Positions 3,429 to 45,272 of a stretch of 64,000 nt of DNA are shown one piece after another. The DNA is from Elusimicrobiota bacterium. GTDB taxonomy: Bacteria; Elusimicrobiota; Elusimicrobia; UBA1565; UBA9628. The first letter of the stretch is position 1; every line of letters begins with the position of its first letter. Below the pieces are notes generated by a model, which searched no databases, was not told the DNA's origin, and saw nothing but the letters and a program-made list of their open reading frames with translations. Made by a program: the position numbers and the translations under genes. The DNA lies in the NCBI GenBank assembly GCA_027451985.1, contig DAIDHS010000001.1, positions 97,932-161,931 on the forward strand, given 5' to 3'.

Positions 3429-3441
3429 AGCGGAGCTCGCC

Positions 3442-4290: not shown

Positions 4291-4521
4291 TCACGGCGAT
4301 TTCCGCTCGAAGCCCTGAATGGGATTGACGACCTTGCCTTGCGCGTTGACCGCTTGCCTATATTCAAGCACTTTTTTCGTGATCTCCTCCGCGCTTTCGC
4401 GCACGAGGTAGCGGTTGCCGGTGGCCAGGCACACGACGGTTTCCTGGCCTATTTCCAGCGCCTCGATGATTTCCGCGTTGATGACCACGGCGGTCCCGTT
4501 GAGCTTGTGCAGCGTGATCAT
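4291..4521 (-). CDS. flbD: flagellar FlbD-like protein; likely true start is M11 of the track ORF
   Basis: The track ORF is 4291..4551. The internal start MITLHKLNGTAVVINAEIIEALEIGQETVVCLATGNRYLVRESAEEITKKV matches the FlbD consensus MIxLTxLNG...FxLNAELIE. Its ATG (4521..4519) overlaps the TGA of the upstream coiled-coil gene. Confidence 0.65.
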   Translation of the reverse strand: MITLHKLNGTAVVINAEIIEALEIGQETVVCLATGNRYLVRESAEEITKKVLEYRQAVNAQGKVVNPIQGFERKSP

Positions 4522-8004: not shown

Positions 8005-9627
8005 TCAAGGGCCCTGATTGGAGCCCTGGTTTACGCTGCCCAGGAAATTCTTGATCGTTTCGTTGGTTGGATCGATGGCCAGGGCTTTCTGCCACACGGC
8101 CGTGGCCTTGTCCTTTTGGTCCATCATGTAGAAGGCGCTGCCCATGATCTCGAGCGCCGTCACGTTGTTGGGCTCGATGTCCAGAATGTCCTGCGTTCGG
8201 CGCAGAGCCTGATCGTATTTTCCGTTGTACATGGACTGCCGCGCGTCATAAATCTTCTCCTCGACCCAGGTGAGTTGTTCGGGGCCGATGGGCTTGCGGG
8301 TGATGTCCTTGACGCCCGCCTCCTTCTCGACCATGTTGAGAAGGGCCAGGAGCCGATCATCCTTGGAATTCTTGTTGTAAGCGTAGCGCAGATCGTTGAC
8401 CGATTCTTGGAGATCCCGCCCGTCGACATAAGCGGCCACGCCCTTGCGAATGAAGGTCTGGTAGTCCTGTCCGCCCTCGGCCGAAGGGATGTAGGTCGTC
8501 ACGGCCATCAGGCGCGAGAGCATGGCCTCGACCTGCCTATTGCCCGGCTGAACGTCTAGGGCCTGGTTGAAGCGCTGCGAAGCGAGGGTAAAATCTCCTT
8601 CCTGGAAAGCTTGGAAGCCTGCTTTAAGCAAGGCTTGAACTTGTTCGTTGGATTTCTCGCCGCGGGCTTGGCCGAAGCGGAACGTCGCCGAAATGCGGGT
8701 CGTGGTGCCCAGATCGGACGAGAGGCCTTCGCCGAGATCGAGGCCGATGGAGTGAAAATCCAGGCCGAAGCCGAAGTCTGTCTCTTGGAGGCTGGGCAGG
8801 CCGCGCAGTCCGAAACGCGCCGCGAACCAGCGCGTCACCCAGAACTCGCCGCCGAAGCGGGCGTCGAATGCTCCGACGATGGGGCGGTAGACGTCAAAGT
8901 CCATCACCAGTCTGTCGCGAAAGAGGTAGAGGGAATTCCCCAGAATGACGGTGACGGGCAGATGGTCTTGGGTGTCTCCGCTGGTCCTTGAGAACGCGTT
9001 CTGTAGTCCCAGAGCCAAGTGATAGGGCCCCATCAGCTTCAAGGCTCCCAGATTGATGGTCTCGGAGGTGTCGGAGGAGCCGTCCAAGGCGCGAGTGATC
9101 TGCTGGACCGTCGCGCCGAAGGCCATTGACTTGGTGATGTATTTGCCCCAGCCGATGGAGATGGCCCGATCTTGTTCGCTGAAGCTTCCTCCGGTTGTGA
9201 TTTGGGTAGGCTCGCCCGTCGTGGGATCGAAGACGGCGCTGACTTGCTGGAAATTGCTGGAGGTTAATTGCGTGAGGCTCAGATCCAGGGTGCTGCTGCC
9301 CTTGAGCGGCTGCGCGTAGCTCAAGAAATCGAGGTTGGTCTGGTAGAAAAGGGTCGATTCCATGGCGGTGAATTCCTTGCGCTGGATTTGGGCTAGTCCG
9401 GCGGGATTCCAGTTAACCGCTGAGGCGTCGTCCGAGATGCCGTAGTACGCGCCGCCCATGGCTAGGGCGCGCGCGCCGACGCCGTAAGTGAGAAATTCCC
9501 CGGGCTGTCCTCCGGATTGGGCACGTGCGCGCAAGGGAGCGAAGATAAAAAAAACTGCTGCGGGCAAGCCCGCTGCCGCGAAGCGCCGCCGTCTTGGGGG
9601 CATGCCCCAAGGTCTCGTTTTGGCCAT
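8005..9627 (-). CDS. outer-membrane beta-barrel protein (FadL/PorV-like N-terminus) with C-terminal TPR repeats
   Basis: 540 aa. Signal peptide AAGLPAAVFFIFAPLRARAQ, possibly starting at internal M9. The motif YGVGARALAMGGAYYGISDDASAVNWNPAGL is typical of FadL/OMPP1/PorV-type barrels. Alternating beta-strand-like sequence runs to ~aa 330. The C-terminal 200 aa are TPR-like (ALLKAGFQAFQEGDFTLASQRFNQALDVQPGN...). Confidence 0.55.
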   Translation of the reverse strand: MAKTRPWGMPPRRRRFAAAGLPAAVFFIFAPLRARAQSGGQPGEFLTYGVGARALAMGGAYYGISDDASAVNWNPAGLAQIQRKEFTAMESTLFYQTNLDFLSYAQPLKGSSTLDLSLTQLTSSNFQQVSAVFDPTTGEPTQITTGGSFSEQDRAISIGWGKYITKSMAFGATVQQITRALDGSSDTSETINLGALKLMGPYHLALGLQNAFSRTSGDTQDHLPVTVILGNSLYLFRDRLVMDFDVYRPIVGAFDARFGGEFWVTRWFAARFGLRGLPSLQETDFGFGLDFHSIGLDLGEGLSSDLGTTTRISATFRFGQARGEKSNEQVQALLKAGFQAFQEGDFTLASQRFNQALDVQPGNRQVEAMLSRLMAVTTYIPSAEGGQDYQTFIRKGVAAYVDGRDLQESVNDLRYAYNKNSKDDRLLALLNMVEKEAGVKDITRKPIGPEQLTWVEEKIYDARQSMYNGKYDQALRRTQDILDIEPNNVTALEIMGSAFYMMDQKDKATAVWQKALAIDPTNETIKNFLGSVNQGSNQGP

Positions 9628-9795
9628 TATATCTTCGGCAACCAGACGCTCCCCCAGGGAGTCGTGGCTTTGCGCCCCTGCCTTGCGGCAGGTTTGCCTT
9701 TATCGCCTAACCCGCCCTGAACGTCCGCCGCGGCCTTGATCGCAACCCCTCGATCGTAACGGCGGAAACTGGCCGGATTAGGATGCAACATGGCA

Positions 9796-9823
9796 AGTAT
9801 AACAGAAAGACTTGACTTGTCAA
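9796..9823 (-). promoter_or_regulatory. sigma70-like promoter TTGACA-N16-TATACT reading toward the OM-barrel/motor gene string
   Basis: Minus-strand reading ttgacaagtcaagtctttctgttatact. It lies inside a near-palindrome cttgacttgtcaag, ~160 nt upstream of the 9627 start codon. Confidence 0.5.
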
Positions 9824-9896
9824 GGGGGTTGGGCGTTTTTCTTCTATGGTTCATGCGGGTCCGAGTTAAAATAAAGTTAAAAGTAGCTTTTGGATA

Positions 9897-9925
9897 TTGA
9901 CAAAAGATTAAGCGGGGGCTAAACT
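9897..9925 (+). promoter_or_regulatory. sigma70-like promoter TTGACA-N17-TAAACT
   Basis: ttgacaaaagattaagcgggggctaaact, 30 nt upstream of the ATG at 9955. Confidence 0.5.
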
Positions 9926-9954
9926 GCCGGTGTAAGCCGATTGAGGCTCATGAC

Positions 9955-11583
9955 ATGAAAAAACGCCTTTGGAAGCCGCCCCAGCCGTCGGATACTTCCG
10001 CGGCCGTCGATATCCCTGAGCTTAAGGAAAAGGAAAAAAAGAAGAAAGGGGCGCCCTTTTGGATGGGCGCCGGGCAGTCCACCGAGGCCATCTACGGCTC
10101 TCTGGAGAGCATTCCCGGCGTGGAGGCCTCGCAGGCGGCGGCCAGTGCCGCTGTTCGCGCGGCGGCTTCGGCGCTTGAGGCTGACACAATGGGGGAGGCC
10201 GTTTCAGCCGTCGCCGGGGCCTCCTCGGACGCGGCTGGCGGATTTCTTGCCCGATTCGCAGATTCCTTGGTTTCTTACTGGCCTGAAAGTTTAATCGGCA
10301 AGGTGGCTGCCGCAGGAATGCTGCTTATTACGGCGGGGGCGCTGACCAGCGGCGCCGCCTTGTTCGCAAAAGCCGCCGCCACTGGTGTCCCTATGGCGGG
10401 GTTGGGTGGCATCGTCAGCTCCCTTCATTATATGAAGCCGCCGTCCAAGAGTCTCCTGTACGCGGCGGCAGCGGCTCGGAATATGCCATCGGCGGCCCAG
10501 AGCGGCGTTGCGAAGGCGGAAGATGCCATCGCGGCCGGAGGATTTACCGGGCAGGTTGCGCCGGGAGCGCCCGTGGGACAAAAAGGCAATCTTCAGGGCC
10601 CGCCGACGCTTGGCGGATCCCCTTGGGGCAGGCAGAATTCTTTCGACGGTTCAGCGGCCGGAGAAGGCTCTCTCTCAGGTGCTGCGCCTCCAAGCGCAGG
10701 CGGAAAAAATGGAAAACTGAGCGGCGCTTTTCAGCAGAGCGTCGATGGCAAGGGCGTCGGCGGCGCTCTCAAGGTCGCGGCCAACACGGGGAGCCCATTT
10801 GCGAGGCTAGGCCGCTTCGGCAGTGGATCGAGCCAATCCCTGGGGCTTTTACGCAGCATGAAAACCTATATCCCGGGCATGACCAGCGGCAACTCGAACC
10901 CCGGCGAAATTCCCGCCCAGTTGGCTGCGGAGCAGTTCGATCATTCGAATTTGATCGGGGCGAGCGCTCCATCCGCTCCTTCCATCGGCAACGGCACGCC
11001 GGACCTGCTGACTTCGCCCAACGCAGGAGGCGGCAGCGGCGGCGGTTCGGGTGGGAGCAATAACTCCTGCGCACAGGACGGCATGGTCTGGAACGGCAGC
11101 GGCTGCACGGCTCCGAGCGCGCCGCCGGGGCAGAACTCATCGCCATGGCAGTCGGCGATGAGTTCTGCGAACATGCTTCTGCCTATTGCGGCCGGACTGA
11201 TGATTATGGCGGCGATTTTGACTAATATCCCGTTTGGATGGGGGAAGCCTGCCGCGTACGTGCTTGCCATCTTGGCCGCCGTGCTGGGAGGCGTCGTTCT
11301 TCTGCAGGGAACAGGCATGATTGGGGGCGGCCAGAAAACCGGCGGTGGGACGCTGGTGACCGCTGGCATACTGACCGTGGCCGGTGCCTGGGCCGCCTTC
11401 GGCGGCAGCTTTAGCGCCGGGCCGGAACTCTTACCCACCGTTATCGGTGCGATCGCCGGGGTCATGTCCTCGATGATGCAATCCTTTACCCCGCCACCAC
11501 CACCGCAGACACCGCCCACGAACGGATCCGGATCGTCGGGGAGCGGCTCCTCCTCCGGAACCTCGAACGGAACCGGCGGCTAA
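9955..11583 (+). CDS. hypothetical Gly/Ala/Ser-rich membrane protein; C-terminal TM helices
   Basis: 542 aa. Low-complexity G/A/S-rich body. C-terminal hydrophobic helices (MLLPIAAGLMIMAAILTNIPFGWGKPAAYVLAILAAVLGGVVLL; LVTAGILTVAGAWAAF), followed by a PPPPQTPP tail. A TTGACA-N17-TAAACT promoter lies 30 nt upstream. Confidence 0.5.
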   Translation: MKKRLWKPPQPSDTSAAVDIPELKEKEKKKKGAPFWMGAGQSTEAIYGSLESIPGVEASQAAASAAVRAAASALEADTMGEAVSAVAGASSDAAGGFLARFADSLVSYWPESLIGKVAAAGMLLITAGALTSGAALFAKAAATGVPMAGLGGIVSSLHYMKPPSKSLLYAAAAARNMPSAAQSGVAKAEDAIAAGGFTGQVAPGAPVGQKGNLQGPPTLGGSPWGRQNSFDGSAAGEGSLSGAAPPSAGGKNGKLSGAFQQSVDGKGVGGALKVAANTGSPFARLGRFGSGSSQSLGLLRSMKTYIPGMTSGNSNPGEIPAQLAAEQFDHSNLIGASAPSAPSIGNGTPDLLTSPNAGGGSGGGSGGSNNSCAQDGMVWNGSGCTAPSAPPGQNSSPWQSAMSSANMLLPIAAGLMIMAAILTNIPFGWGKPAAYVLAILAAVLGGVVLLQGTGMIGGGQKTGGGTLVTAGILTVAGAWAAFGGSFSAGPELLPTVIGAIAGVMSSMMQSFTPPPPPQTPPTNGSGSSGSGSSSGTSNGTGG

Positions 11584-11667
11584 AATTCCCGCGACGATCA
11601 ATCTTGCGAGAGCATTTCCGGTGTCCACCCCCCAAAATTGAAATTTGGTAAAAAAAGACGGTTTCTC

Positions 11668-11696
11668 TTGACAATGCCTCGGGGCCGCATTAAACT
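11668..11696 (+). promoter_or_regulatory. sigma70-like promoter TTGACA-N17-TAAACT (same hexamers as the promoter at 9897)
   Basis: ttgacaatgcctcggggccgcattaaact, 16 nt upstream of the ATG at 11712. Confidence 0.5.
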
Positions 11697-11711
11697 ACTA
11701 CCAGCATTGAT

Positions 11712-12803
11712 ATGAACTCCAAAACGCCGTTCTTCAAAGGCCGGAGTTCCGGCGGCATTTCCTCCGCTTTTCGCAAGAAAGAGACGATTGCGGCCGCGGG
11801 TATTTTTGCGGCGGCGGCCCTGGTTGCGGCTTTCCTTTTAAGCGGAAAGGAATTTTCGGTTCCCCGGATTTTTTCCGGTTCCGTCGCGGCCGCTCCGAAC
11901 GCGAATCTTCCAGTAAGCGCCCAGGCGCGCGGCGTTCCGCAGTTGCCGCAGGCTGCGTCGCCGGCCAATCCAGAGTCCCTGGCCTTGGGCGGTTATTACC
12001 CGGGAGACGCGGTCGTGCGCCGTTGGCGCGGCGATTTGGGGGGCGAAACGGTGACGGGCTTTATCGATCCCAAGCAGGCTGGCCGGCGGCGGCCATTGGT
12101 TCCTTTACCTCTTCCGGCCGCGTCGGGCCCTTCGGCCGTGGCGCCGGACTCGGTGGCCGAGGCAGTGAGCGGAACCAGCGTCCCACGTGCGTCGCGGGCT
12201 GCCGTTAAAAGGAGGCTTCGTGGCCAGGGATTCCGCCGCTACAGGATGCATCATATCGCGCTCTGCAGCGGCGCCGAGTGCGCTCTCCGAAGATTATCCG
12301 ACATCCGGATTTTGACCGCCGATCACTCTCCGTGTCTCGCGGTAAAGGGCTGCGTCGCTGAAAACGCGGTCGCCGATGAGAATGCGGTGTATGACGGTTC
12401 ATCCGCCGCGCCGAGCGCCGGGCCTTCCGCCTTGAATCAGTCGGCGCCCAAAATCAGTCCGGCCGCGCAGGCCGGCTTGGGCGGGCAAAGCGACGCGGCC
12501 GCCGCGGCGCAGGCGCAGCGCCTTTCGGAGGACGCCAAGCGTTGCGCCGCCGCAAATACGCTGTACTTCGGGACGCCGGAAAAGCCGGGCCCGCAGGTTC
12601 TAGCGCGGCAGGATTTATCCTTGGCATATAAAAACCTGGAGAGTTCCGGATGCCTTTCCGCGAACGGCGCTCTTTGCGCCGCGTCGCGCGAGAAAGCGGG
12701 CGAACTTTGCCGGCAATTCGACGCGGTGCGGCTGGCCCATTACGAGGCGTGCCCCATCGATCAGCGGCTGGGGCCCTACGAACCCGCGCAGTGCGTGCTT
12801 TAG
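11712..12803 (+). CDS. hypothetical membrane-anchored Cys-rich protein
   Basis: 363 aa. N-terminal TM (IAAAGIFAAAALVAAFLL). C-terminal half holds multiple Cys (ALCSGAECALRRL...HSPCLAVKGCVAEN...CAAANTLYF...SSGCLSANGALCAAS...CRQFD...YEACPIDQ...AQCVL), consistent with an extracytoplasmic disulfide-rich domain. An identical TTGACA-N17-TAAACT promoter lies upstream. Confidence 0.5.
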   Translation: MNSKTPFFKGRSSGGISSAFRKKETIAAAGIFAAAALVAAFLLSGKEFSVPRIFSGSVAAAPNANLPVSAQARGVPQLPQAASPANPESLALGGYYPGDAVVRRWRGDLGGETVTGFIDPKQAGRRRPLVPLPLPAASGPSAVAPDSVAEAVSGTSVPRASRAAVKRRLRGQGFRRYRMHHIALCSGAECALRRLSDIRILTADHSPCLAVKGCVAENAVADENAVYDGSSAAPSAGPSALNQSAPKISPAAQAGLGGQSDAAAAAQAQRLSEDAKRCAAANTLYFGTPEKPGPQVLARQDLSLAYKNLESSGCLSANGALCAASREKAGELCRQFDAVRLAHYEACPIDQRLGPYEPAQCVL

Positions 12804-12812
12804 GAGAATATT

Positions 12813-15398: not shown

Positions 15399-15481
15399 TG
15401 TTTTTATTTCCAGGTTGCCGCCTTTTGCGCGGAGAGTCTCTTGGTGTGTGGACAAAAAACGGAACTCCTGCTATTCTTTTT

Positions 15482-15533
15482 GGGCCTAAAGTCCTATTGA
15501 CAGCTAGGCCCTTTGGGTCTGGCGAAATAGGAC
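15482..15533 (+). promoter_or_regulatory. nested inverted repeats (GGGCCTA/TAGGCCC and GTCCTATT/AATAGGAC) enclosing a TTGACA hexamer, upstream of the secreted-protein gene
   Basis: gggcctaaagtcctattgacagctaggccctttgggtctggcgaaataggac. The 8-mer arm is shared with the hairpin at 18278. Confidence 0.4.
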
Positions 15534-15554
15534 CGATGGGTTTACAACAGTAAT

Positions 15555-18173: not shown

Positions 18174-18277
18174 GCGCGGATACAAAACTTCCGGCTTTCC
18201 GCTAAATACTCCATAATTTCCCTTGAAATTTGTTCTTTTAGGGGTTATATACGAAACGTGATTTTGCAAGCAGGAGA

Positions 18278-18305
18278 AATAGGACTAAGGTCCTATTTTT
18301 TATTT
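18278..18305 (+). terminator. hairpin AATAGGAC-taag-GTCCTATT followed by TTTTATTT: intrinsic-terminator-like, or operator, between the 872-aa gene and the giant gene
   Basis: 8-bp perfect stem, 4-nt loop, U-tract, plus strand. Sits 105 nt after the upstream stop and 49 nt before the giant-gene ATG. Confidence 0.45.
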
Positions 18306-18353
18306 AGGCCCTTAGGCACTGGCTCGTCGGGTTCTTAGAGATACACTGATACT

Positions 18354-25736: not shown

Positions 25737-25787
25737 AGAGGCAGAGTCGCTGCCCTGCCTCAACTGTCGAAAAATATTTGGGAAGCC

Positions 25788-25816
25788 TTGAAAATTCAGC
25801 AAACGCCCGCCATAAT
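25788..25816 (+). promoter_or_regulatory. sigma70-like promoter TTGAAA-N17-CATAAT upstream of the 5277-aa gene
   Basis: ttgaaaattcagcaaacgcccgccataat. The -10 ends 8 nt before the ATG at 25825, which would make that start leaderless. Preceded by a weak hairpin ggcagagtcgctgcc after the upstream stop. Confidence 0.45.
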
Positions 25817-25824
25817 ATCCCGTC

Positions 25825-37800: not shown

Positions 37801-40800
37801 GGTGAAATCCAAGCGTTGGGTTATTCTCCAAGCCAAGAGGGGACTCTCCCTTCCTCCGACATAAGTCTCGAAGCGCAGCCCGCGCGCGAACTTTCTCGGG
37901 GCATGATGGCGTACTGGGCCGAGCGAACGGCGGCTTCAGATTTCGCGGCTCAAGAGCAGAATATCTTGGACGGATTTGGCCCATTGCTTTCTCAGGATTT
38001 CAAGGAGCGATTGGCCTCGGACATTCAATCTTGGAGCCAAGCCCGCGCCGAGGCTCGGCGTCTGCGCGCGGGCGATCTCCCAGCCGTTAAGAAAGACGCG
38101 CTTTTGGTTCAAAACGATGCGACGGGCAAGCAGGAGGCCGTGGAACAGGACTTGGCCGCCTTGGTCGACGCTTTGTCCTCGGCCGGGAACTCTTCCGCGG
38201 CGGCGTCCGGCGACCTGAAGCAGTTGCTGGTCTTCTTGCAGAATGATATGGATGTCCAAGCCAACGCCACGAAGGATCAGCGCCTAAAATACAACAAGAG
38301 CGTCGAGGAACTGCGCAAGACGTATTGGGACTCGCTGCGCCCCGGCTTGCCGCCCAAGGTCGCCGGAGCGTTCACGCGGCTCGAAGACCTGCAGCATAGT
38401 CTGCGCGGAGATTGGCAGAGCCTGCTCGATAGCTATATGGAGAACGGCTCCGGCACGGAGCCGTTCATCATGAAGGACGTTCAGCTGGATGCCTATCTTA
38501 AGGACCAGCACGCCTTCAACCAGGAGATCGTGGCTCTGCTGAAGTCCGACGAAGTGCGGAAGGATCCGGCCGCTCTGGAAGGCCTTGAGTCGCTCTACGA
38601 CGTGCGCACGGCCCTGGACCAGGAGATTGCGGTCGCCCGCTACGGCCGCGGCATGGCGGCCTTGGACGCGCTCATTGAGCTCGATCAGGTGCGTCTTGAC
38701 GCGGCGCGCGGGGAGAACAAGGGGCCGGATGCGATTGCGGCGGCGGTTCAAAGCCTGCAAACCCTCGAAGACATGAAGCAACGCTGGCTCAAAGGGCAGG
38801 ACTCGCTCCAGCCCGTCTACGCCGTGGTCCCCATTCAGAGCGACGGCCAGGACATGAACGTGGTGACGGAATGGCTGACCCAGAAGGAGATCGACGCCCG
38901 CCAAGCGGACGGGCAAGATGAGCCGCTTAAGCATGGCGGGACCATCACCGAGGAGGGCGGCAAGTACTATCTTAACTCCGCGGGGGGAGGGCGATTCCTT
39001 ATTCGCTCAGGAGTGGACCAACTCCAGAGTGGCGTGGACGCCGCGCAAGCAGCGCTGGATCAGAACCAGAGCGTCATCGATTTGGGCTTTAAAGCCGATT
39101 TCGTGTCCGATAAGTTTATCGATGGCAGGCCTGTGAGCCAGTACTCGGTGCAACAAGTCTTCGGCTTGGTGCCGCCTCCCAAGGCTGACGTCGGGTCCCC
39201 GCCGCCTGAACAGCCCCTGTTCCTGTTCTATCAAGTTTCTGGCGCGCCGAGCCTGGGAACGGGGGAAAACGCCGACGCCTTCAGTCGCCTCTTGCCCGAG
39301 GCCATCGCTTTGACGGAAAGCCCGAAGGATTACGCGGTTTACGTCTACACTGGGCCGGAGAAGCTTTCTTATGACAATTTCCCGACGCTCCAGAGCCTTA
39401 AGGATTCCCCGGAATACAAGGACGTGCAGAAGCTGACCCTGACGCCGACGGGTGCCTCCGACGCCTCGATGCTGGCCCGCGGCAGGGGCCTGATCTCGCT
39501 GCGCAAAGGGTGGATCGCGCTCAAGCTCAATAGCTATGGCTTTGCGCTGGACGGCCAGAATCTCGTGAAGGTGTACCAGAGCCGCGATGAGTTCGACGCC
39601 TCGCAAGAGCGGCTGGAGAACGCCAAAGACAATCTTGCCGAGGCCCAGGCGGCTCTTAAACGAGACAGGGCGATCAAAGATGCGGAAAAAAATAAATTCG
39701 ATTCCATTGAGGCCGAGTACAATACTCAACTCGCGAAGTATCAAAAGGCGCTGAACTCCCGGAAACAGCAGTTGGAGAAAATGGCCTTAGGCGATTTGTC
39801 CCAAAAGCCCGGCGAACCCGACGCTTTTTATAAAGTCCGCGTGGAAAGCAAGGTTGACTTCCTCATCAAGGGCGACGCGAAATACCGGGCCATCATGAAA
39901 AATCTTGCTCCCTACGCAAAGAAATTCGATGCTGAGAAGCTCAAGAACGACGCGGCCCAGGCCCAGGCTGATGACGACCAGAAAGCCGTGGACAAGGCCA
40001 GTGCTGTTTTGGCCGACGCGCAGAAATGGAGCTTATACAGGACGGACAATCTCTCGCTGGAATTGGCCGGAGATGGGACGCTCGTGGCCGTCAAGGCGTC
40101 CCCGGCTTACGGTGGAAATTTGCTGAATGAAACTTTGGCCGACGAAGGTCAGAGCGTCCCCGCGAACCCCGTTCTTGTTAATGGGGCCCTTTACGCCGTC
40201 GTTCTAGATGGCGCAGGCCGCGTGGTCAAGACATTCCAAACTTCGGATGCGGTGGAGAAGGCGGCCAAGACTTGGACGATGGAAAGCGTGAGTATGAACC
40301 CGAATGGCGCCGCAGTGGAAAGCGGCGGACGAATCATGACTAACTATCGTCTGGATTATTATGAGGACCCAGCCACCAAGCTGCCAGTTGAGCTCAGCGA
40401 GCGCTACGTGCGCGATCGGGTCGAGCACGACAAACGCAGCCTCTTCTACCGCGAACATTGGGGCTTGATGCCGCAGAATTGGTTCAGCTTGGTCATGAAC
40501 GTGCCGGATCAGATCGTCGGGACTCCCATCGAACTAGCCGGACGGGATCCGAACCAGCAGCATTATCTGGGGCGCGTCAATATGAACCACAGCGAGGGCG
40601 GGGAGACGCAGCATCACGGATTTTTCCGCAACGCCCTGGGTTTCGTGGACGTGCTCGACCTGTTGCCGGACCCGGTGAAGATTTACAACGACCCCAGCCA
40701 GTTCCCCGCGCAATCCCGAATTAGTTCCCCAGTCATGCCGGGCCAGGACATCTACTCGAAGTCCCTGCGCAATCCTAAAGACGGAGAGAACGTCCATTTC

Positions 40801-41658
40801 GGCGCCAAGGCCGTGGCCCAGGGCTTGCAGTACTCTCTTGAGGATTTAACCGACGCCCAGCAACAGACGCTGAGCTATTTCCGGGGCGGCTACGAAGATT
40901 TGATCATCAGCCGCATGCGAGGGCGTGATGGGACGTATGAGGAATCCCAAAGGACGGCCCGCAGCGGCGGCGGTGCCATTGCGAGCAAGCTCGAGGATCA
41001 GGGCACCCGAGACGAGGCTTACGATCCGCTTGCGGCGGCGGACGCCCGTTCTGCCATGCATGGAGTTACGGAGACGGCCAGCCCTGATAATGTCTTGACC
41101 GAACGAGTGGAACGGCGCGTGAAAATTCAGCTTGGGGCCAAGCAGTATAATCAGGCGGCTGATGGGTTTAAGGCCTATTCCAAGGATATAAATGGTGCGA
41201 TTAGCAAAGAGAAAAAAGAGCGAGAGGGGCTTGCAGGATCTTTAAGCGCTGAGCAGGCGGCTTTAGAAAATGCTTTAGCCGCCAGGAATGACGCGCAATC
41301 GAGCCTGGATAAGACATGGTCCAAGTACCACGCGCTGGAATTGCGCATGGGGGCGGAAAAAGCTTTGGAGCAGGGAATTGTCTTGTGGCAGAAGCGCGCT
41401 AATGATTTGGCGGCGCAGTTCAAGACGGCGCAGGCTCAAGCCGACACCATGAGGAACCAGCTTCAGCAAGCCGCTGGCCTCGCCGCCGCGAGCCGCACCT
41501 CGTCCCGGCAGGCCGCCGCGACTTCGTTCCCGTCTCCGGCGCAGCCAAAGACGCCGATTTGGCCGTGGATCTTTTTCTTGGGCGGACTCGTCAGCCTTTT
41601 GGCGGCGGCGTGGGAAGCACTGCGCCATAGAATATTACGCGCCAAGCGTATTGACTAA
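25825..41658 (+). CDS. giant 5277-aa protein: N-terminal polytopic membrane domain, ~4000-aa Gln-rich helical region with a central beta-rich island, and a C-terminal TM anchor; alternative start at 25951 places the signal peptide at the N-terminus
   Basis: One uninterrupted frame of 15.8 kb. From M43 (nt 25951) the sequence is MKKVLYKLTAVVVTGALLLLTPGISCYQVLAQD. More than 15 hydrophobic helices lie in aa ~270-1150. The following ~4 kb of protein is Q/A/L/N-rich helical low complexity (QEQQQWQQQVTQQVNSDNQAQ ...). A beta-strand-like block sits at nt ~33200-34300 (GNSVTLGNVARIFGNNISVEGYQFE...TLDLYYDRIHG...TFDSSFSLRQIW). The C-terminus PIWPWIFFLGGLVSLLAAAWEALRHRILRAKRID is a tail anchor. Confidence 0.7.
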   Translation: MRGEFRMGLKAWGTLGLFNPPRGAIRLSSGQPLTSILFTYARMKKVLYKLTAVVVTGALLLLTPGISCYQVLAQDVSAESEQSQTPVNMNLGGQLETVPLEQMAVNPAAGGLYQLPDIHVPPSETLPVGASAVKSAAQSVSASAQAASIRAQSVPAVEGAQTAAAALPETPAAAALSNGAASVTQGRVGTRQRYSRAAALSAAQDGRQAVRLGSLGWLRSTAGKVRSWIKPGASAANLKFESNKSFDAAYGKSAAVPSAGKSESLRPGRKGRIARTLGLAGAIAVPAAAAAIPLPAKAAAVVHAAAHSGLIHSVGLTFHAILTAIGPAGIHAIYLSMNVLAAGLALPEVLRTFRRGSAHQVPMGELTMAVVGSAIFGLIIGPMKGYWGWAAQNNYGGLSMLAVLPIGWILGRGGVKIFGKRFWGPIPEPQKTENPSAEKPGLLRRIWNGFKDPAVLRTIAAAALIGVAAVGFTQLAAAVGPAIFPPLLNFVASLFPTTASGMGLLTAAVLSVPGYIALKWLRGLLKSPVSWKKKALLGLPLLAAFPAMAFWLWPMASAGALPMTADKLVSLLSGLGGGLFVFLFAPEVIRALIVGEDSSKHFNWRTSLIFSVASLGFLIYWGNQYFVNPASMGVAMSNMIQNAIGGLFSTISFLLAWKHRNHKVASAAEENGNAARVAAAGEAEKISNPGQAPPDRSPPGESPGAPKTEGENLSPHVYENIFGFRGIKGRSYASADSKLQPLTSRSTSSQIVDRISFQFNISRDKVLLIASRQGISEAAPAARWLAVYERLQKSNYERFKELDHAKNAGHGLFGEAIRKAWARLRGKAAPDTAGFRRLANKTYAPGAKGVLQRAAGVHRLVIGFWIGFVYECFDSFILGYFRQAISFHFRHRNEDFLGIAAGRQDEQAGALSENALAAAIAGVQGRGLTAMERFNATAVGHAVSGAVIRPFVHPLLTFLRRRLVMALLSAVAMGFLGAAAPAMPFLSISVLTVPFLGPLILHASHFFLFSVASIPGVGHFLLPVVTKAVNALLKDLVLGPMLNTYVLSFLMALTRRPVRQWLPALKSGSFWWESLKTYFGMMTIGAEIAGCLSYFAGIDSAIDSHGFYQLIGKHIHSHFHLFHALGSAVESPKGQSLIPFGGAITWGNALLYHFQNAIHFNISNWIAVHLNPAALAQGGAHRAFEMGISNPLQRDFQFNAKDYLASPKQAKARLKQMDSNASFSELRKELAAAKAREQALSSAEGQAQDQILKLKKQRRPITPQEKAEYQALLKQLQRQRENVYAQNKLAEMRDLKGRNPKSDLLLKLTALKKQYAGRLNPKPTDKTDYWHDLGVKESQYASMAARLSQIVQPAGGNPPDPNGAARSSAASGAALAAVSADASKDLDAIKSSIQKINTKREALKGELLRKQALEKLMDAEARLRQIALDQRRDGKAMQGFHQSLSQLDSVMGLALSQNELNAALKAINQMQTLIGNKDATINQSISQDQANLQQIQNLLNQEQQQWQQQVTQQVNSDNQAQSDMKSTQGEVVSVISSVQTFSQSEKNLIANINTTDGGASGNALTEYARRLALIQNGTIAQWENSGGNPNVTFTMSQLNGYLQQISAGIQEAQNGLQTLEKAPQNFAETAILEVPGPAVNVPPNPSKADILNILSQRQTYWQNELNSYESLQTTIREMGDPNNHAMTQNVFGDSEPQSLPVWKSQEQGVLTQDQTQIGKDTQQMDQMAAAVNAAFGSHLPMLSGQSLTQLQSEVQNYANDLTALKMPSGTDPKTVEAKMNLINLAYLVSDLGNQVINASVAQQTITTIDGAMSTTLPQAAQGIDAIVQMVKNILADEQMDVAYVNGDQETQQQVFTRKENLLQNEILPSLQQAQSMLQNDLIPFQQQTIASYQQSNSTTGYYYLYTTKQSFLTQIESLYNTTMPWSIETFGGVSGDKAGSLQDVAAWKTQLQGYLTGYKDSSGVEQQGLEQALQEANDRMTTNFKGNSQDPATETVYGEVQPYSLPDKITKYTAEMQTRVSQLNQNDVKINQMLEEIKTLSNGQYDLTQYLLPTGVGTDAASVAKIQALINANTLPSLGSALQQVANEALAASGSTNINIGGGNGSVLSGTQPSPTISNDQKIALLASQIGPLLAPASQSVTNPSAGDTTDAVARYMYSNSVIQAAQNGEQFINSTVYPFVHQGIQTINDAVNDANNRIAYINSGGTSMTPQQIYDQELKIFNELGGFLDQAQNFFGQKSSFDSQSFSTISSILNYYQSLETIDQSGITAAQGQLQADQTISQALQAEQTKLQGQLSEINGWLSQLNDPHDSALRRTSDAISAIMDQTRQVLEQNIKFKDLQSQLRDSDQIIQSQTRELEVKQKNLQSLIDDYEKKAEGQPLPPAVAQQVKDLKFGQGMWEQGGPDGSYVVVPKSKYPSFVRALLKTIAPQDSNDAIEQIAQNLISNPQSLMSLIPGSQVMNFGNSADGFYMVYQTNLSIPNGVSTGNSVTLGNVARIFGNNISVEGYQFESPPESPSGGASNAPWGDKGVGVQVESLQGKNWVNYLNIDLHRFGLSVPNNDTMAAQVQQDRILVFDDYAMMALNGKLYIGLAGFGDGAIHDPSGNPYYYGGNFKTAIQMTPVISLTAQQQELFANDPRSFLENVNLDFTGNDPSLNQNFAIAAQGDSKSFSRTKLGTSIDVAQWLAGNKQKSSDAFTLDLYYDRIHGTDDISQNALGASVIKGFTLYRDNGKPWLNITNNASGEAGQKYDMASDDLTINLPNGIVLSGNGQIMGSERAYYGQIAKKMTDTSQIQLGYGSPVIGMNNRLNLTFDSSFSLRQIWETVSRQAADDLQGGQALKPFKRSLADFLSANSGDTAAAELKKVFDHYAAQELVDSDAIGDLSKQIGDLQKAGAFMDNTKVQSVLGFTSGAVSNDPTELAVGGGPVVGTETTMTISRTQKALIADKTATLIRDGLQLQDTMVGAAQKFQGAVKDVIEAEGSLRIAQAAEARLPAGPQRDEALVQADRAQARLNEAIIRFNVMTGRPPGAQFPLQDLSGATLEDLMAQLKQTITMPAGLARVLHQVDPQKLQARVGSNPFNILDKIPWVERMTLGVGTQLQDSMSSQLLGAGGSVTLPIYDPTSKAKNHAYRLENKAALAEISQVYEDHARAVEKELFESGLAGDQSKTLGPELTQASNNLNEVSAAYRNGLAGPAELQKAYQTWMWYYDAYNEALATKTLADASASLAGNFLSPGQGWKGAAGLMGPDSPPLDLTSLPQAASLAAAHSGSLEEMAAREQAAQAMTQAASHRIQKASLDLSVGGNLVASGTGWIPSIGMTGFPVMPIFNFKFEPSDLRDLDQAQHKAESKYYAAIKGKLQADLAFEIYQNVLTYETSISELTQLNDVVIPQFAKEAQTASAGPAEAAARHRLDQAKLERDGVLYAGAQALASVNMLLGRSPSSPLRIDISPKTATFDLQKQYKAESPAQIQDKVLGAQVRIARTAETITDRGEKIQELSTEPVSLVVRAAGRLLRTLSGNGLGDPDLKQQALLEDLKAQRALESFRKNVPVERAQLEQRLAVVTDAISRTSPEGSSAVQFIDLQSQKMLLQAQLASLQGIGTEAPIGQAAPGSGAPSAMPDNFADLRNRLETAEQGVTAPPDVQGAGLANPQVSKAQPESFTRFYYLRQTLGKTQVHQGYLESWLEARLRFSGTSPRELLRLEKLREDEEDQDYMAAQSAAAAKGDILAADFAAKVQTFRYMKKHIGAKDQRQTDEALTSIRHALKSDAVQIAALLGLPLDAAGKAGATDETMKALMALVPEQTENAQAVGQDLINRLNDQSFAHIEQMLFNGQAPIPGTNSAAALSDIRTDILLKHMASSNITPVAAFGVFRGQPVEGLFLKTPDPTTIEAGLESVLSKDMLAKLKASGELQDLTLHLSQLMQAVHDDAQTLESQRRLIQSAQAQYENLLALGTPQASAELQAAQHELIQAWLDFNNQAAKSKSDVVELSGEIQALGYSPSQEGTLPSSDISLEAQPARELSRGMMAYWAERTAASDFAAQEQNILDGFGPLLSQDFKERLASDIQSWSQARAEARRLRAGDLPAVKKDALLVQNDATGKQEAVEQDLAALVDALSSAGNSSAAASGDLKQLLVFLQNDMDVQANATKDQRLKYNKSVEELRKTYWDSLRPGLPPKVAGAFTRLEDLQHSLRGDWQSLLDSYMENGSGTEPFIMKDVQLDAYLKDQHAFNQEIVALLKSDEVRKDPAALEGLESLYDVRTALDQEIAVARYGRGMAALDALIELDQVRLDAARGENKGPDAIAAAVQSLQTLEDMKQRWLKGQDSLQPVYAVVPIQSDGQDMNVVTEWLTQKEIDARQADGQDEPLKHGGTITEEGGKYYLNSAGGGRFLIRSGVDQLQSGVDAAQAALDQNQSVIDLGFKADFVSDKFIDGRPVSQYSVQQVFGLVPPPKADVGSPPPEQPLFLFYQVSGAPSLGTGENADAFSRLLPEAIALTESPKDYAVYVYTGPEKLSYDNFPTLQSLKDSPEYKDVQKLTLTPTGASDASMLARGRGLISLRKGWIALKLNSYGFALDGQNLVKVYQSRDEFDASQERLENAKDNLAEAQAALKRDRAIKDAEKNKFDSIEAEYNTQLAKYQKALNSRKQQLEKMALGDLSQKPGEPDAFYKVRVESKVDFLIKGDAKYRAIMKNLAPYAKKFDAEKLKNDAAQAQADDDQKAVDKASAVLADAQKWSLYRTDNLSLELAGDGTLVAVKASPAYGGNLLNETLADEGQSVPANPVLVNGALYAVVLDGAGRVVKTFQTSDAVEKAAKTWTMESVSMNPNGAAVESGGRIMTNYRLDYYEDPATKLPVELSERYVRDRVEHDKRSLFYREHWGLMPQNWFSLVMNVPDQIVGTPIELAGRDPNQQHYLGRVNMNHSEGGETQHHGFFRNALGFVDVLDLLPDPVKIYNDPSQFPAQSRISSPVMPGQDIYSKSLRNPKDGENVHFGAKAVAQGLQYSLEDLTDAQQQTLSYFRGGYEDLIISRMRGRDGTYEESQRTARSGGGAIASKLEDQGTRDEAYDPLAAADARSAMHGVTETASPDNVLTERVERRVKIQLGAKQYNQAADGFKAYSKDINGAISKEKKEREGLAGSLSAEQAALENALAARNDAQSSLDKTWSKYHALELRMGAEKALEQGIVLWQKRANDLAAQFKTAQAQADTMRNQLQQAAGLAAASRTSSRQAAATSFPSPAQPKTPIWPWIFFLGGLVSLLAAAWEALRHRILRAKRID

Positions 41659-41694
41659 AGCCGCAACTTCCACTATCCTTAAGTGGATTAAGCC

Positions 41695-43866
41695 ATGTCA
41701 TGGCTTCGTTCGGGCATTTTCCGCCGTTTCCTGCTGGTCATGGGAGCTTTGTCCCTGCTTCCCGTGGCCTTGCTTGGCTATCACCTTGTTAATTTGAGCC
41801 GCGTCGGCATCCAGAATTCCGTCCTGGAACTGCAGACCAAGCTCGCCGAAAAACTGTCCCAGCAGGTGGACGATTACTTCAACGCCGCCAATTCCAACAT
41901 CTCATTCGCCTTATCGGCCTTGAACGGCAGCATGCCCTGGAGCGACAAGCAGACTCTTCTGGAAAACCTGGTCGAAACCAACGCCGGAATCCAGAAGATC
42001 TCGATGCTTAATCCGCAGGGCCGGGAAATCGTCAAGATCTGCGGGCCGTCACTGCCCTGCGGCAAGAATCTCGCGTCTTATGCCGACGATAAAGGCTTCG
42101 TGAAGTTCCGTAAGAGGGGTTTGAGGACCGTCTCGTTGCTTGCGGACAAGGGCATGCCCGCCTTGTGCTTCTATATTCCTTTGAACAAAAGCATCGTCGC
42201 GCGGATTCTCATGTCCCTGGAGGTTCTCGCCACGCGCATTACCTCGGAAACCGTCAACGGTACGGGTTTCGCGGTGATGGTCGACTCCAAGGGCAATCCG
42301 CTTTTCTACCCTGCCGGCCGACTCTCCAAGTCGGACGTGGAGTCCTTCCATGCCTGGCCCATTGTGATCGACGCCCTTCAGGCGACCAGCGTCGGCTCCA
42401 GCGAGTTCAGCGACGCCGCCGGAGTTAAATATGTCGGCGCCTACGCCCCGGTGGCTTCCATCGGTGGGGCCGTCATCATTCTCCAGCCCTGGCGCGACGC
42501 CTACGCCTCCGCCATCCGCATGAAGCAGGACGCCATGAGCGCAGTGGCGCTGGTCCTCGTCTTCTGTCTCATAGCGGCCTTTTTCCTCGCGCGGCGGCTA
42601 ACCCAGCCGCTTTTGACGCTGACCCGGGCCGCTGAAGCTGTTTCATCGGGGGATTTCCAGACCAAGGTCACGGTCGGCACCAAGGACGAATTGCAGGAAC
42701 TGGCCGAGACCTTCAACACGATGATCGAAAAGCTCAGGCACTACTCCGATCTGCAGGTCGACCGGCTCATCGCCGAGGAAGGCAAGAGAAACGCCCTGCT
42801 CTTCTCTATTGACGAGGCAATTTTGATGCTGGATCAAGACGGGCGCGTTCTGCTGGCCAACCGCCGCGTCTTCGAGCTTTTCGGACTCGCTCAAGACGCC
42901 CCGATCGAAGGGAAGACCCTGACGGAGGCGTTTCCGGAGTCTCCCCTGCGCGACGCGGTCGTCGCGGCGGCTCAGAAGCCTCGCGCTGATTTCTTCAAGG
43001 ACTTGAACCTGTCCACAAAAAACAAGCACAGCTCTTTGCGCGTGGGGGCCCAGCCGGTGGTGAGCCCTCAAGGGCAGTCCCATCTGGGCGTCATCGTGGC
43101 CATCCGCGACATCACGCTGGAAAAAGAGCTTGACAAGATGAAGGAGGAATTCCTCCACAGCATCACGCACGATCTGCGCAACCCCCTGGGCTCGGCAATT
43201 GGCTTCCTGGATCTTTTGCTTAAGGGGACTGCGGGCGTTTTGACCCCGCCGCAGGCCAATATGGTATCGTCGGTGAAGCGCTCCTCAAGCCGCCTGATGG
43301 GCATGGTCAACAACATTCTGGATATCGCCAAGATGGAAGCGGGCAAGATCCGGCTCCAGTTGAAGCCGATTTCGCTCGCGGGCATCGCGAGCCGCTCCAT
43401 CGCGACGTTGGAGTCATTGGCCCTCAATAAGCGCATCCGCGTTGAATTGGCGGCGGCCGAAGAATACACTGCAGATGTCGATGGAGATCTGCTGGAGCGG
43501 GTCTTTACCAATCTTCTCGGAAACGCGATTAAATATACCCCGGAGGGGGGGAATATCGTCATCTCCATCAAGGATGACGGCGCTTCCTTCACCTGCTGCG
43601 TCGCGGACAGCGGCGAGGGAATTCCATCCGAGTATCTGGGGCGCATTTTCACCAAATTCGAGCAGGTGACTGGGCAGAGAAAGGGCGGCACCGGGCTTGG
43701 TTTGACTATCTCCAAGTTTTTCGTCGAAGCCCATCGCGGAAAAATCTGGGTCGAATCGGAGGTGGGCAAAGGCGCGCGCTTTTACTTCACGATTCCCAAA
43801 GGCTTGGCCCTGGATGCGGAGGGAAACGTCATCGCCGAGGCGTCCCGGACGGAGAGCGTCTCATGA
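41695..43866 (+). CDS. sensor histidine kinase (TM - periplasmic sensor - HAMP - PAS - HisKA - HATPase_c)
   Basis: 723 aa. N-terminal TM and ~250-aa extracytoplasmic domain, then a second TM. HAMP LTQPLLTLTRAAEAVSSGDFQTKVTVGTKDELQELAETFNTMIEKLR. H-box EEFLHSITHDLRNPLGS. G-boxes NLLGNAIKYTPEGG and GTGLGLTISKFFVEAHRGKIWVESEVGKGARFYFTIP. Confidence 0.9.
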   Translation: MSWLRSGIFRRFLLVMGALSLLPVALLGYHLVNLSRVGIQNSVLELQTKLAEKLSQQVDDYFNAANSNISFALSALNGSMPWSDKQTLLENLVETNAGIQKISMLNPQGREIVKICGPSLPCGKNLASYADDKGFVKFRKRGLRTVSLLADKGMPALCFYIPLNKSIVARILMSLEVLATRITSETVNGTGFAVMVDSKGNPLFYPAGRLSKSDVESFHAWPIVIDALQATSVGSSEFSDAAGVKYVGAYAPVASIGGAVIILQPWRDAYASAIRMKQDAMSAVALVLVFCLIAAFFLARRLTQPLLTLTRAAEAVSSGDFQTKVTVGTKDELQELAETFNTMIEKLRHYSDLQVDRLIAEEGKRNALLFSIDEAILMLDQDGRVLLANRRVFELFGLAQDAPIEGKTLTEAFPESPLRDAVVAAAQKPRADFFKDLNLSTKNKHSSLRVGAQPVVSPQGQSHLGVIVAIRDITLEKELDKMKEEFLHSITHDLRNPLGSAIGFLDLLLKGTAGVLTPPQANMVSSVKRSSSRLMGMVNNILDIAKMEAGKIRLQLKPISLAGIASRSIATLESLALNKRIRVELAAAEEYTADVDGDLLERVFTNLLGNAIKYTPEGGNIVISIKDDGASFTCCVADSGEGIPSEYLGRIFTKFEQVTGQRKGGTGLGLTISKFFVEAHRGKIWVESEVGKGARFYFTIPKGLALDAEGNVIAEASRTESVS

Positions 43867-45272
43867 CGGCCCTGCGGCGCGGCGCAGGGCGTACGGCGCA
43901 GGGCGCACTTGTCTGCTGTTTGCTATTGTGGCTGGGCGTCGCGGCATCCGGCAGGGAAATCTTTCAGAAAGTCGTCGTGCGCCCGGGAGACACACTGTGG
44001 GGCATCGCGCAGACGTATCTCAAGAATCCCCAAAAATGGAATGAGATCCTTAAATATAACACGCTGCCTTCCCAAGATCCCACGGCGGCTCTTCCTGGAA
44101 TGGTTCTGCGCGTGCCGGTCAATCTGATCAAAGAGAGCCTGCAGGCAGCCTACCTCGTGCAGAAGGAGAACACCGTTTATTTTAGGCGCCGCGACACTGC
44201 CGGCTGGAAATCGGCGTCGCTTCATCTGAACTTGTATCAAGGAGATTCCCTGCGCACGCTGGATAACGCGAGCGCGCGCGTGAAGTTCCTGAGCGGAGGG
44301 AACTTGGCCATGAACGCCAATTCAATGGCGATCATCCAACCGCCCAAAGCCGGCTACGACGTCAACCTAGAGCGGGGCAGCGTTTTCGTTGGGCACGCCA
44401 CGGTGGTCACAGCTTCGGCGCGCATCGAGCCAAAGACCAAGGATACGCAGTACATGGCCAAGGTCGGCGAGGACTTGAGCACCATCGTCGAGGTTTATCG
44501 CGGCCGCGCCGCGGTTTCGGCCCAAGGCCAGACCGTGGACGTCAACGCCGGCATGGCCAGCGTGGTTCCCAAGGGTTTGGCGCCCAATCTGCCTCAAAAA
44601 ATAGCCGATTTTTCCGCTCTTCAGGACCAAGCCGCGGCGTTGAACGGGATTTCCAGATCCGTCAAAGTCGCGGGGGCGTTCCCGTCGTCTCTGGGCGAAG
44701 GCGCCCTGCCGGGAAAAGCGGCGCTCCGGGACGCGTCTTCCGGCATTGCGCGGGAAGTGTCGTCACTGGAAATCGGCGTGCCCGTTTCCGGTTATCGCGT
44801 CCAAGCCTCGCGTTCGCCCGCTTTCGATAGGCTGGTGTTCAATAGGGTTTTTAACTCAGATGAGAAATTCGATCCGTCTTCGGCGAACTTGCCTCCGGGT
44901 ATTTATTGGTGGCGCATCGCCCTCATCGACTTGCTCGGCACGCAGGAAGATTTTTCATCGCCAAAGCGCTACGTCATCGGCGGGGGAGAGTCGTCCCAGC
45001 AGATCGATCCGTCCGCTCTGATGCTTTTGATCCATCCGCAAGACGGCGAAAATGTTTTTTCACCGGAATACCGCGTTTCCGGACGCCTCAAATCGTCTCA
45101 GGCGTCCGTTTCGGTGAACGGCCGCCCGGCGCGCCAGGATGAGGAAGGCAATTTTTTCGCCGATATCCGCCTGAAGGCAGGCGACAACAAGGTAGCCGTG
45201 ACGGTCCAGGATGCTTCCGGGCAGAGCGCTACGGTCGTTAGAACCGTGCGCTACTCGCCGGGCGGCGAGTAA
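43863..45272 (+). CDS. LysM-domain protein with FecR-like domain
   Basis: 469 aa. Signal/TM ALVCCLLLWLGVAASG. LysM KVVVRPGDTLWGIAQTYLKNPQKWNEILKYN. The following region (SARVKFLSGGNLAMNANSMAIIQPP...ERGSVFVGHAT) resembles a FecR sensor domain. ATGA overlap with the kinase gene stop. Confidence 0.65.
   Translation: MTALRRGAGRTAQGALVCCLLLWLGVAASGREIFQKVVVRPGDTLWGIAQTYLKNPQKWNEILKYNTLPSQDPTAALPGMVLRVPVNLIKESLQAAYLVQKENTVYFRRRDTAGWKSASLHLNLYQGDSLRTLDNASARVKFLSGGNLAMNANSMAIIQPPKAGYDVNLERGSVFVGHATVVTASARIEPKTKDTQYMAKVGEDLSTIVEVYRGRAAVSAQGQTVDVNAGMASVVPKGLAPNLPQKIADFSALQDQAAALNGISRSVKVAGAFPSSLGEGALPGKAALRDASSGIAREVSSLEIGVPVSGYRVQASRSPAFDRLVFNRVFNSDEKFDPSSANLPPGIYWWRIALIDLLGTQEDFSSPKRYVIGGGESSQQIDPSALMLLIHPQDGENVFSPEYRVSGRLKSSQASVSVNGRPARQDEEGNFFADIRLKAGDNKVAVTVQDASGQSATVVRTVRYSPGGE

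Follow-up and report, generated by a model that had tools for sequence, protein, structure and literature searches.

The closest published analogy to the proteins described here comes from Omnitrophota, whose giant membrane proteins exceed 30 kaa (thousand amino acids [aa]) and combine many transmembrane (TM) segments with divergent SecA_DEAD domains (West-Roberts et al. 2023, 10.1101/2023.11.21.568195). Among free-living Elusimicrobiota without flagellar structural genes, most nevertheless encode motAB, flbD, and fliG, a gene set whose role is described as unclear (Uzun et al. 2022, 10.1101/2022.07.08.499144). Here we describe a 64,000-nucleotide (nt) stretch of an Elusimicrobiota genome (GenBank assembly GCA_027451985.1, contig DAIDHS010000001.1, positions 97,932 to 161,931; hereafter, the window) in which a minus-strand operon with the content of that gene set stands head to head with a 35-kb plus-strand locus encoding two giant proteins, giant 1 and giant 2. 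A pairing of stator-like genes with a giant protein is known from Salmonella pathogenicity island 4 (SPI-4), where the MotAB-like proton channel SiiA/SiiB works with the giant adhesin SiiE, a type I secretion substrate with immunoglobulin-like repeats, and where the stator-like genes lie inside the same operon; in the window, by contrast, the stator operon is conserved on its own and has its own regulation, and Sec signals without repeats are found in the giants. An earlier note on this DNA had joined the two gene sets into a single functional island resembling a surface apparatus. Comparison with related loci leads us to a different conclusion: we consider it reasonably probable that two independent modules lie head to head in one narrow clade, and that the plus-strand module belongs to a twin-giant family which, in this clade, delivers a toxin.

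The gene order was checked with an open reading frame (ORF) map and Pfam/NCBIfam scans, which recovered the eight co-directional plus-strand genes and the protein properties previously ascribed to them; an exact look-up of the window proteins returned no record. The plus-strand locus reads as follows.

9955-11583, plus strand: ORF 1, protein of 542 aa
11712-12803, plus strand: ORF 2, protein of 363 aa
12813-15398, plus strand: ORF 3, protein of 861 aa
15555-18173, plus strand: ORF 4, protein of 872 aa
18354-25736, plus strand: ORF 5, giant 1, 2460 aa, with a signal peptide, an N-domain of ~850 aa, a hydrophobic Gly-rich center (~aa 880-1230), a superfamily 2 (SF2) ATPase, and a toxin tip
23019-25313, plus strand: two-lobe RecA-type ATPase region of giant 1 with a helical insertion (Walker A TGGGKT, DEYD, SGT, RGLD, Q..GR...GR)
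25479-25718, plus strand: CdiA-CT-type toxin domain, aa 2376-2455 of giant 1 (PDB 8ey4_A)
25788-25881, plus strand: leader of giant 2, with a TTGAAA-17-CATAAT site (25788-25816) followed by a hairpin and a U-run
25825-41658, plus strand: ORF 6, giant 2, 5277 aa as an ORF; 5235 aa (25951-41658) when read from M43, with a signal peptide, a helical/beta-rich body, and a C-terminal TM anchor
41695-43866, plus strand: ORF 7, sensor kinase of 723 aa
43863-45272, plus strand: ORF 8, LysM protein of 469 aa, joined to the preceding gene by the ATGA overlap noted before (4 nt, 43863-43866)

The motor-like operon runs in the opposite direction.

8005-9627, minus strand: first gene, PorV/PorQ-like outer membrane barrel fused to TPR, 540 aa (PorV_fam, 1.4e-21)
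5960-7957, minus strand: FliG-like protein, 665 aa (Pfam FliG_C, 4.1e-24; FliG_M, 7.9e-10; TPR families)
4518-5948, minus strand: coiled-coil protein, 476 aa, with a Pro-rich N terminus and an E/A/L/R/K/Q composition
4291-4521, minus strand: FlbD-like small protein, 76 aa from an internal Met; homologs in relatives carry PF06289 FlbD
3442-4242, minus strand: MotA stator subunit (Pfam MotA_ExbB, 5.9e-26)
2673-3428, minus strand: MotB, with plug and peptidoglycan-binding domain (Pfam MotB_plug, 1.3e-11; OmpA, 1.6e-15)
1920-2669, minus strand: last conserved gene, lipoprotein-like protein of 249 aa with a lipoprotein-signal-like N terminus

Metagenome contigs scanned with an alignment of the FliG-like protein yielded 80 loci, across which tblastn finds the seven genes of the motor operon conserved jointly down to 36 to 45% identity. 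We treated 34 loci as evaluable, namely those in which 3 kb or more (3 to 8 kb read) could be followed upstream from the PorV-like gene. Homologs of the plus-strand genes lie there in 3 of these, all with a FliG-like identity of at least 81%; the other 31 have unrelated divergent neighbors, such as, in a 3.1-Mb genome, a 220-aa gene with sucCD and POR behind it. In four distant loci (L089 to L092), between one and four small genes of variable kind (Y1_Tnp-like, TrkA-type channel, and ORF6N) separate an ATPase giant from a second giant, whose called products of 4,162 to 5,724 aa each run off the locus end; the ATPase giants are preceded by genes for 330 to 1,118 aa without Pfam matches. The motor operon is absent from the available upstream DNA in all four (10 kb in L089 to L091; 3.5 kb to the contig end in L092). 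Because these pairs share homology with the window giants and have no upstream motor operon, we place the plus-strand locus in a twin-giant module independent of that operon. Between the window and L001, moreover, the motor genes are 64 to 92% identical and the plus-strand genes 32 to 64%.

Synteny thus speaks against one functional island comprising the stator/rotor operon and the 35-kb locus, and the juxtaposition of two modules in one clade is the best-supported reading, a shared role being no longer the economical explanation. The earlier note had itself named halves that never co-occur as the observation that would count against it; what we find is close to this in spirit, since co-occurrence is confined to one narrow clade. 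Its other conclusion, that the plus-strand genes form a coherent, uncharacterized envelope locus matching no described system, is borne out: the two giants and the 861-aa gene recur jointly in distant Elusimicrobiota. Separating two gene sets that look like one prevents the spread of a wrong annotation as a motor-driven giant organelle.

The region between the two modules and the gap behind the first plus-strand gene carry the following elements, of which the riboswitch, like the flbD gene, the inner promoter-like sites, and the CdiA-CT-type end of the 2460-aa protein, is absent from the earlier note.

9633-9707, minus strand: c-di-GMP-I-GGC riboswitch aptamer (Rfam RF03167), part of the motor operon's 5' leader
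9823-9796, minus strand: promoter-like site of the motor-like operon, TTGACA-16-TATACT, 11/12 matches
9897-9925, plus strand: promoter-like site before the first plus-strand gene, TTGACA-17-TAAACT, 10/12 matches
11668-11696, plus strand: a second TTGACA-17-TAAACT promoter-like site, before the 363-aa gene

Both hexamer pairs described for the divergent promoters are present, and the account of this stretch as a control region with two promoter-like sites stands; what changes is that about 75 nt of it form a predicted cyclic di-GMP (c-di-GMP) riboswitch on the minus strand. The match to RF03167 scores 61.8 bits against a gathering score of 59 (E 2e-12), and only 6 nt separate the end of the aptamer from the ATG with which the motor operon opens. 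Riboswitches of this class occupy the same position in 11 of 12 other Elusimicrobiota loci tested, loci without the plus-strand genes included (L001, 8274-8355; L003, 8215-8293; L004, 8204-8280; L031, 8155-8234; L047, 7816-7894; also L014, L032, L041, L059, L066, and L010), with an insertion of ~60 nt in L008 and L010. Since it is kept where the plus-strand locus is missing, the riboswitch leader belongs to the motor operon alone. The motor-like operon (minus strand, 9823 down to 1920) is a phylum-wide envelope operon that would be transcribed from its own promoter through a riboswitch abutting the start codon, and the direction of control is one that we infer. The conserved riboswitch would tie this enigmatic MotAB/FlbD/FliG-like operon of nonflagellated Elusimicrobiota to the motile-versus-sessile decision and offers a testable entry to its role.

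The minus-strand promoter-like site (9796-9823) is invariant in the relatives L007 and L008, and the plus-strand site (9897-9925) is unchanged there but for one base; the 64 kb contain just two copies of TTGACA-N17-TAAACT, where 0 would be expected. The minus-strand site overlaps the palindrome CTTGACTTGTCAAG; this perfect palindrome, CTTGAC-TT-GTCAAG at ~9811-9824, overlaps the -35 hexamer, shows no change in L007 or L008 either, and is a possible operator. Given the further promoter-like sites at 11668-11696 and 25788-25816, the eight plus-strand genes need not be one transcript, and the conserved leader of giant 2, with its promoter-like site and hairpin, indicates that they are not a single simple operon.

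The twin-giant module (plus strand, 9897-41658, perhaps extending to 45272) would represent an undescribed family, so far seen in Elusimicrobiota only. We place the ATPase of giant 1 in SF2 because TGGGKT, DE.D, SGT, RGLD, and Q..GR...R are conserved in its two RecA lobes and because ResIII, DEAD, and Helicase_C, the only Pfam matches, are found in family members (ResIII in 15 of 29). This ATPase is the best-conserved part of the protein, 87 to 95% identical to that of L006, with Walker A, DExD, and motif VI intact. An AlphaFold (AF2) model of the region, built from a 29-sequence alignment, has a pLDDT (predicted local distance difference test) of 80.3, and a Foldseek search with this model placed SecA/SecA2 as the top 19 matches. 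In the model, a likeness to SecA/SecA2 would lie in two RecA-like lobes, a domain inserted into the motor, and a long helix that follows lobe two; similarity is also seen in the Walker A, DExD, SGT, RGxD, and Q..GR motifs. The SecA_DEAD, SecA_PP_bind, and SecA_SW profiles match none of the 29 family members, a PDB profile search put SecA at E 1.6, and PDB searches with a shallow ATPase profile and with a full-length family profile returned nothing useful.

Relatives of giant 1 are found in numbers that depend on the search. A word-indexed search of 5.8 billion proteins recovered three relatives of the 2460-aa protein, and a pattern scan of 185,579 species genomes recovered one locus; an exhaustive profile search with the ATPase region recovered 63 cluster representatives, mostly of 2,000 to 3,400 aa, with signal peptides and a similarly placed ATPase. 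All named members of the family are Elusimicrobiota. The likeness to the Omnitrophota giants is one of general design: very large proteins in uncultivated hosts, with N-terminal signal regions, TM segments, long unannotated stretches, and a divergent SecA-type/DEAD ATPase, which in both cases is thus far proposed to assist in exporting those parts of the protein itself that act outside the cell, in predation or attachment. The proteins here differ in being 2.5 and 5.3 kaa long with functions split over two genes, in having no Pfam SecA_DEAD match, in neighbors that are not type II or type IV secretion genes, and in the C-terminal CdiA-CT toxin. No sequence link to the Omnitrophota giants was found in the exhaustive profile search, in which the longest match was a protein of 3,434 aa.

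Giant 2 most likely starts at M43 (25951), where both the signal peptide and the homology to L007 begin. It has ~10 hydrophobic segments in the first ~1,060 residues of the ORF, a body of ~4,200 aa, and a C-terminal TM segment with a basic tail; it has no Pfam or PDB match and, by self-BLAST, no internal repeats. A 2,000-aa query from this protein returned a single fragment match, and the protein is 27 to 39% identical to the second giants of L089 to L092 over 1,300 to 2,700 residues. By eye, residues ~2940-3500 had suggested TolC/outer membrane factor repeats; these gave no Pfam OEP match at E up to 1, and a five-sequence profile found no TolC-family chain in the PDB, so that we make no TolC claim. 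The leader of giant 2 (~165 nt) is kept in L006 (~12161-12260), L007 (~16785-16880), and L008 (~17784-17880) and matches no Rfam family; its hairpin and U-run may be the terminator of giant 1 or an attenuator.

Both giant families open with similar signal peptides whose hydrophobic core ends in ...L-x-x-P-G... (window, 18354-18440 and 25951-26040; proteins P0125-P0186; the second giants of L089 to L092), an ending that could reflect a common sorting signal or simply a typical c-region. Between the two giants, the distant loci (L089, 18053-20971; L090, 17540-18457; L091, 18715-20666; L092, 14196-15786) repeatedly hold a Y1_Tnp-like gene, resembling REP-associated transposases, and a gene for a TrkA-type K+ channel is often present, and in the clade of the window this gap is occupied by the toxin tip and an immunity-like ORF; it appears to be an insertion hotspot.

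The last 80 residues of giant 1 match 8ey4_A, annotated as a "PT-VENN domain-containing protein," at E 1.6e-22 and are about half identical to it. This entry is described as an Escherichia coli toxin-immunity complex (PMC13068155). In the clade alignment, homologs of giant 1 are conserved up to ...LRF[ML]QKK (~residue 2320) and unrelated beyond, and three states follow this one junction: the 8ey4_A-like tip in the window, PF18451 CdiA_C in L006 and L008 (3e-20 in L008), and none in L007, where giant 1 lacks a tip. Judged from these alignments, a fixed junction with alternative tips is the hallmark of a polymorphic toxin carrier. In L006 and L008, the tip is followed by a 138-aa ORF, for which a weak precomputed SitI3 match was not reproduced in our own scan.

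Contact-dependent inhibition (CDI) systems are the obvious comparison, and the likeness consists of a large conserved carrier, a fixed junction, interchangeable C-terminal toxins with CdiA-CT homology, and, in relatives, a small ORF directly after the carrier. Neither giant 1 nor its neighbors have Pfam matches to a TPS domain, FHA repeats, a VENN motif, or a CdiB transporter. Unlike CdiA, the carrier here holds an ATPase and a Sec signal, with LRF[ML]QKK as the junction motif, and unlike CDI loci, the window copy has no adjoining immunity gene. The swappable CdiA-CT toxins, together with the small ORF that takes the position of an immunity gene in relatives, suggest inter-bacterial antagonism. 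Toxin fusions mark protein ends that reach other cells and so point to a delivery function, which, being testable, gives a first functional handle on such giant proteins; for a poorly known phylum, the locus defines a conserved two-giant module whose ATPase is intact and which in one clade carries swappable CdiA-type toxins.

These features can be assembled into a tentative mechanism. Giant 1 would enter the Sec pathway, its hydrophobic center holding it in the inner membrane with the ~850-aa N-domain outside and the SF2 ATPase inside. Giant 2 would be anchored at both ends in the inner membrane, its body of ~4,200 aa projecting into or through the envelope, and the 861-aa and 872-aa proteins would be exported accessory parts. 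The ATPase might drive export or extension of the giant assembly, and the assembly could then deliver the interchangeable CdiA-CT-type toxin at the C terminus of giant 1 to neighboring cells, in contact-dependent antagonism or predation.

Several observations weigh against this reading of two independent modules, one of them toxin delivering. If the ATPase is cytoplasmic, the adjoining toxin must be cytoplasmic as well, and the proposed mechanism offers it no route out of the cell. The window toxin is not followed by an immunity gene, the 214 nt before giant 2 holding no ORF of >30 aa. None of 18 distant family members has a recognizable toxin domain; the toxin tip is therefore a clade-specific addition, polymorphic toxins do not characterize the whole family, and antagonism may be an add-on rather than the core role of the module. 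As for independence, the modules are adjacent in every readable case within the dual-module clade (window, L001/L007, L008/L010, and L009), and the divergent promoter region is highly conserved there, so that a lineage-specific functional or regulatory coupling is possible. Finally, pattern- and word-based searches may overlook very distant relatives.

The alternative that survives best, although we hold it to be unlikely, is that the giants have a passive, structural role at the surface, for instance as adhesins or an envelope scaffold, with accessory genes for their assembly, the toxin tip being an opportunistic fusion irrelevant to what the module mainly does. Giant 2, long, helical, Q-rich, lacking an enzymatic domain, and anchored at both ends, would suit such a role, as would the toxin-free distant ATPase giants and the LysM and SLH-like/glucodextranase-module proteins that adjoin the locus. 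An intact SF2 ATPase that is the best-conserved part of giant 1, however, argues for an active machine, and the toxin tips swap along with the downstream ORF, as they do in true polymorphic-toxin loci.

Somewhat less credit is due to the idea of one apparatus, in which a proton-driven MotAB/FliG-like unit energizes a giant-built surface organelle under shared divergent control. It draws on the head-to-head arrangement in every clade genome where both gene sets are visible, on the strongly conserved intergenic region, including the palindrome at the minus-strand -35 hexamer, and on the precedent of SiiAB with SiiE. Against it stand the 31 of 34 motor-operon loci with unrelated neighbors, the four of four distant twin-giant loci without an upstream motor operon, a riboswitch that governs only the minus-strand operon and persists where the plus-strand locus is absent, the very different rates at which the two gene sets evolve, and the promoter-like sites that the plus-strand genes have of their own. 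A more elaborate version, to which we would give a slimmer chance still, envisages an envelope-spanning delivery machine, with giant 1 as motor and toxin carrier and giant 2 as conduit or tether, wired through the divergent promoters to the c-di-GMP-controlled MotAB/FliG-like unit to form a joint organelle of contact-dependent killing or predation. The least probable alternative is a mobile or defense island, with a helicase-like giant and a nuclease/RNase-type toxin acting inside the cell (for example, in abortive infection) or a polyvalent protein of a conjugative element or phage: the ResIII/DEAD matches, the toxin domain with its adjoining putative immunity ORF, the Y1_Tnp transposase-like genes and toxin-antitoxin pairs of related loci, the lower G+C (GC) content across 14 to 26 kb, and the narrow, patchy distribution speak for it, but the window has no integrase, relaxase, type IV secretion system, or phage genes, both giants and the accessory proteins have signal peptides or TM anchors, the locus lies at the same chromosomal place in all clade members, and PADLOC, applied to eight proteins (giant 1, the 861-aa and 872-aa proteins, and five products of the motor operon), found no defense system, only a ZorB-like match to MotB.

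Returning to the two modules taken separately, the motor-like operon contains MotA, MotB, FlbD, and the FliG middle and C-terminal domains, and neither the 64-kb window nor the related loci, of 22 kb, were found to contain flagellar structural genes (FliF, FliM/N, rod, hook, or export gate). To the known motAB/flbD/fliG set we add the operon architecture (a PorV-like/TPR gene first, then a TM-tethered FliG-like/TPR protein, a coiled-coil protein, and a lipoprotein), the conserved riboswitch, and the observation that the neighboring giant locus is not part of the operon. In contrast to flagellar FliG, which is soluble and forms rings, the FliG-like protein is seemingly membrane tethered: a signal/TM segment at residues 17-35 and a second TM at 222-240 precede FliG_M/C and a C-terminal TPR; all the named ones among its 367 homologs are Elusimicrobia. 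The PorV-like barrel, which also ends in TPR, scores 77.4 bits against PorV_fam (NCBIfam), under the cut-off of 90, and the window holds no PorK/L/M/N or SprA genes of type IX secretion. MotA, of ordinary length (266 aa), is the most conserved product of the operon (56 to 98% identity). The flbD-like gene sits between the coiled-coil gene and motA and is kept throughout the loci, the coiled-coil protein has only weak SMC-like coiled-coil matches and a conserved position, and the lipoprotein-like gene follows motB in most loci at 40 to 85% identity. Likeness to the Zorya antiphage system ends with the ZorB-like MotB, there being no ZorA, ZorC, or ZorD matches.

The accessory genes of the twin-giant locus differ in how far they reach. 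The 542-aa protein (Gly/Ala/Ser rich, 16.8% Gly, three hydrophobic segments) and the 363-aa protein (10 Cys, one N-terminal TM) have no family match and have homologs in the close clade only, those of the former at 44 to 74% identity. The 861-aa protein is N-terminally anchored by one TM at residues 56-74 and matches nothing in Pfam or the PDB; over its N-terminal ~400 aa it shares 35 to 40% identity with genes that precede the giants in L089, L090, and L091, and by this homology it is a conserved accessory gene of the twin-giant module. The 872-aa protein (signal peptide, 20 Cys), again without a Pfam or PDB match, shows 32 to 53% identity within the close clade and a weak similarity to the 1118-aa gene of L090. 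Inserted among the accessory genes of L090 (3885-5190) are an AAA_14/DUF4143 gene and two toxin-antitoxin pairs, one BrnT/CopG-like and one Phd/PIN. In the window, GC falls to 0.53 to 0.57 over positions 14000-26000, compared with 0.60 to 0.66 in the flanks; the 872-aa gene and giant 1 fall within this stretch, as does the end of the 861-aa gene.

All related loci end inside giant 2, and the kinase and LysM genes are possible members of the module. By Pfam, the 723-aa sensor histidine kinase comprises dCache, HAMP, PAS, HisKA, and HATPase_c; among the window ORFs scanned with Pfam, no response regulator gene turned up. The 469-aa exported protein had been labeled LysM-FecR, but no FecR domain was detected with Pfam/NCBIfam; it carries LysM, Glucodextran_B, and a weak Cadherin-like match, and its PDB matches to TsaP, a LysM/FecR protein, span the LysM domain only. 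Its convergent neighbor (45274-47082, minus strand) encodes a secreted protein of 602 aa with an SLH-like Glucodextran_C module, followed by a CBM48 protein, and the LysM/Glucodextran_B protein and this Glucodextran_C neighbor may be a separate cell wall- or glycan-binding pair.

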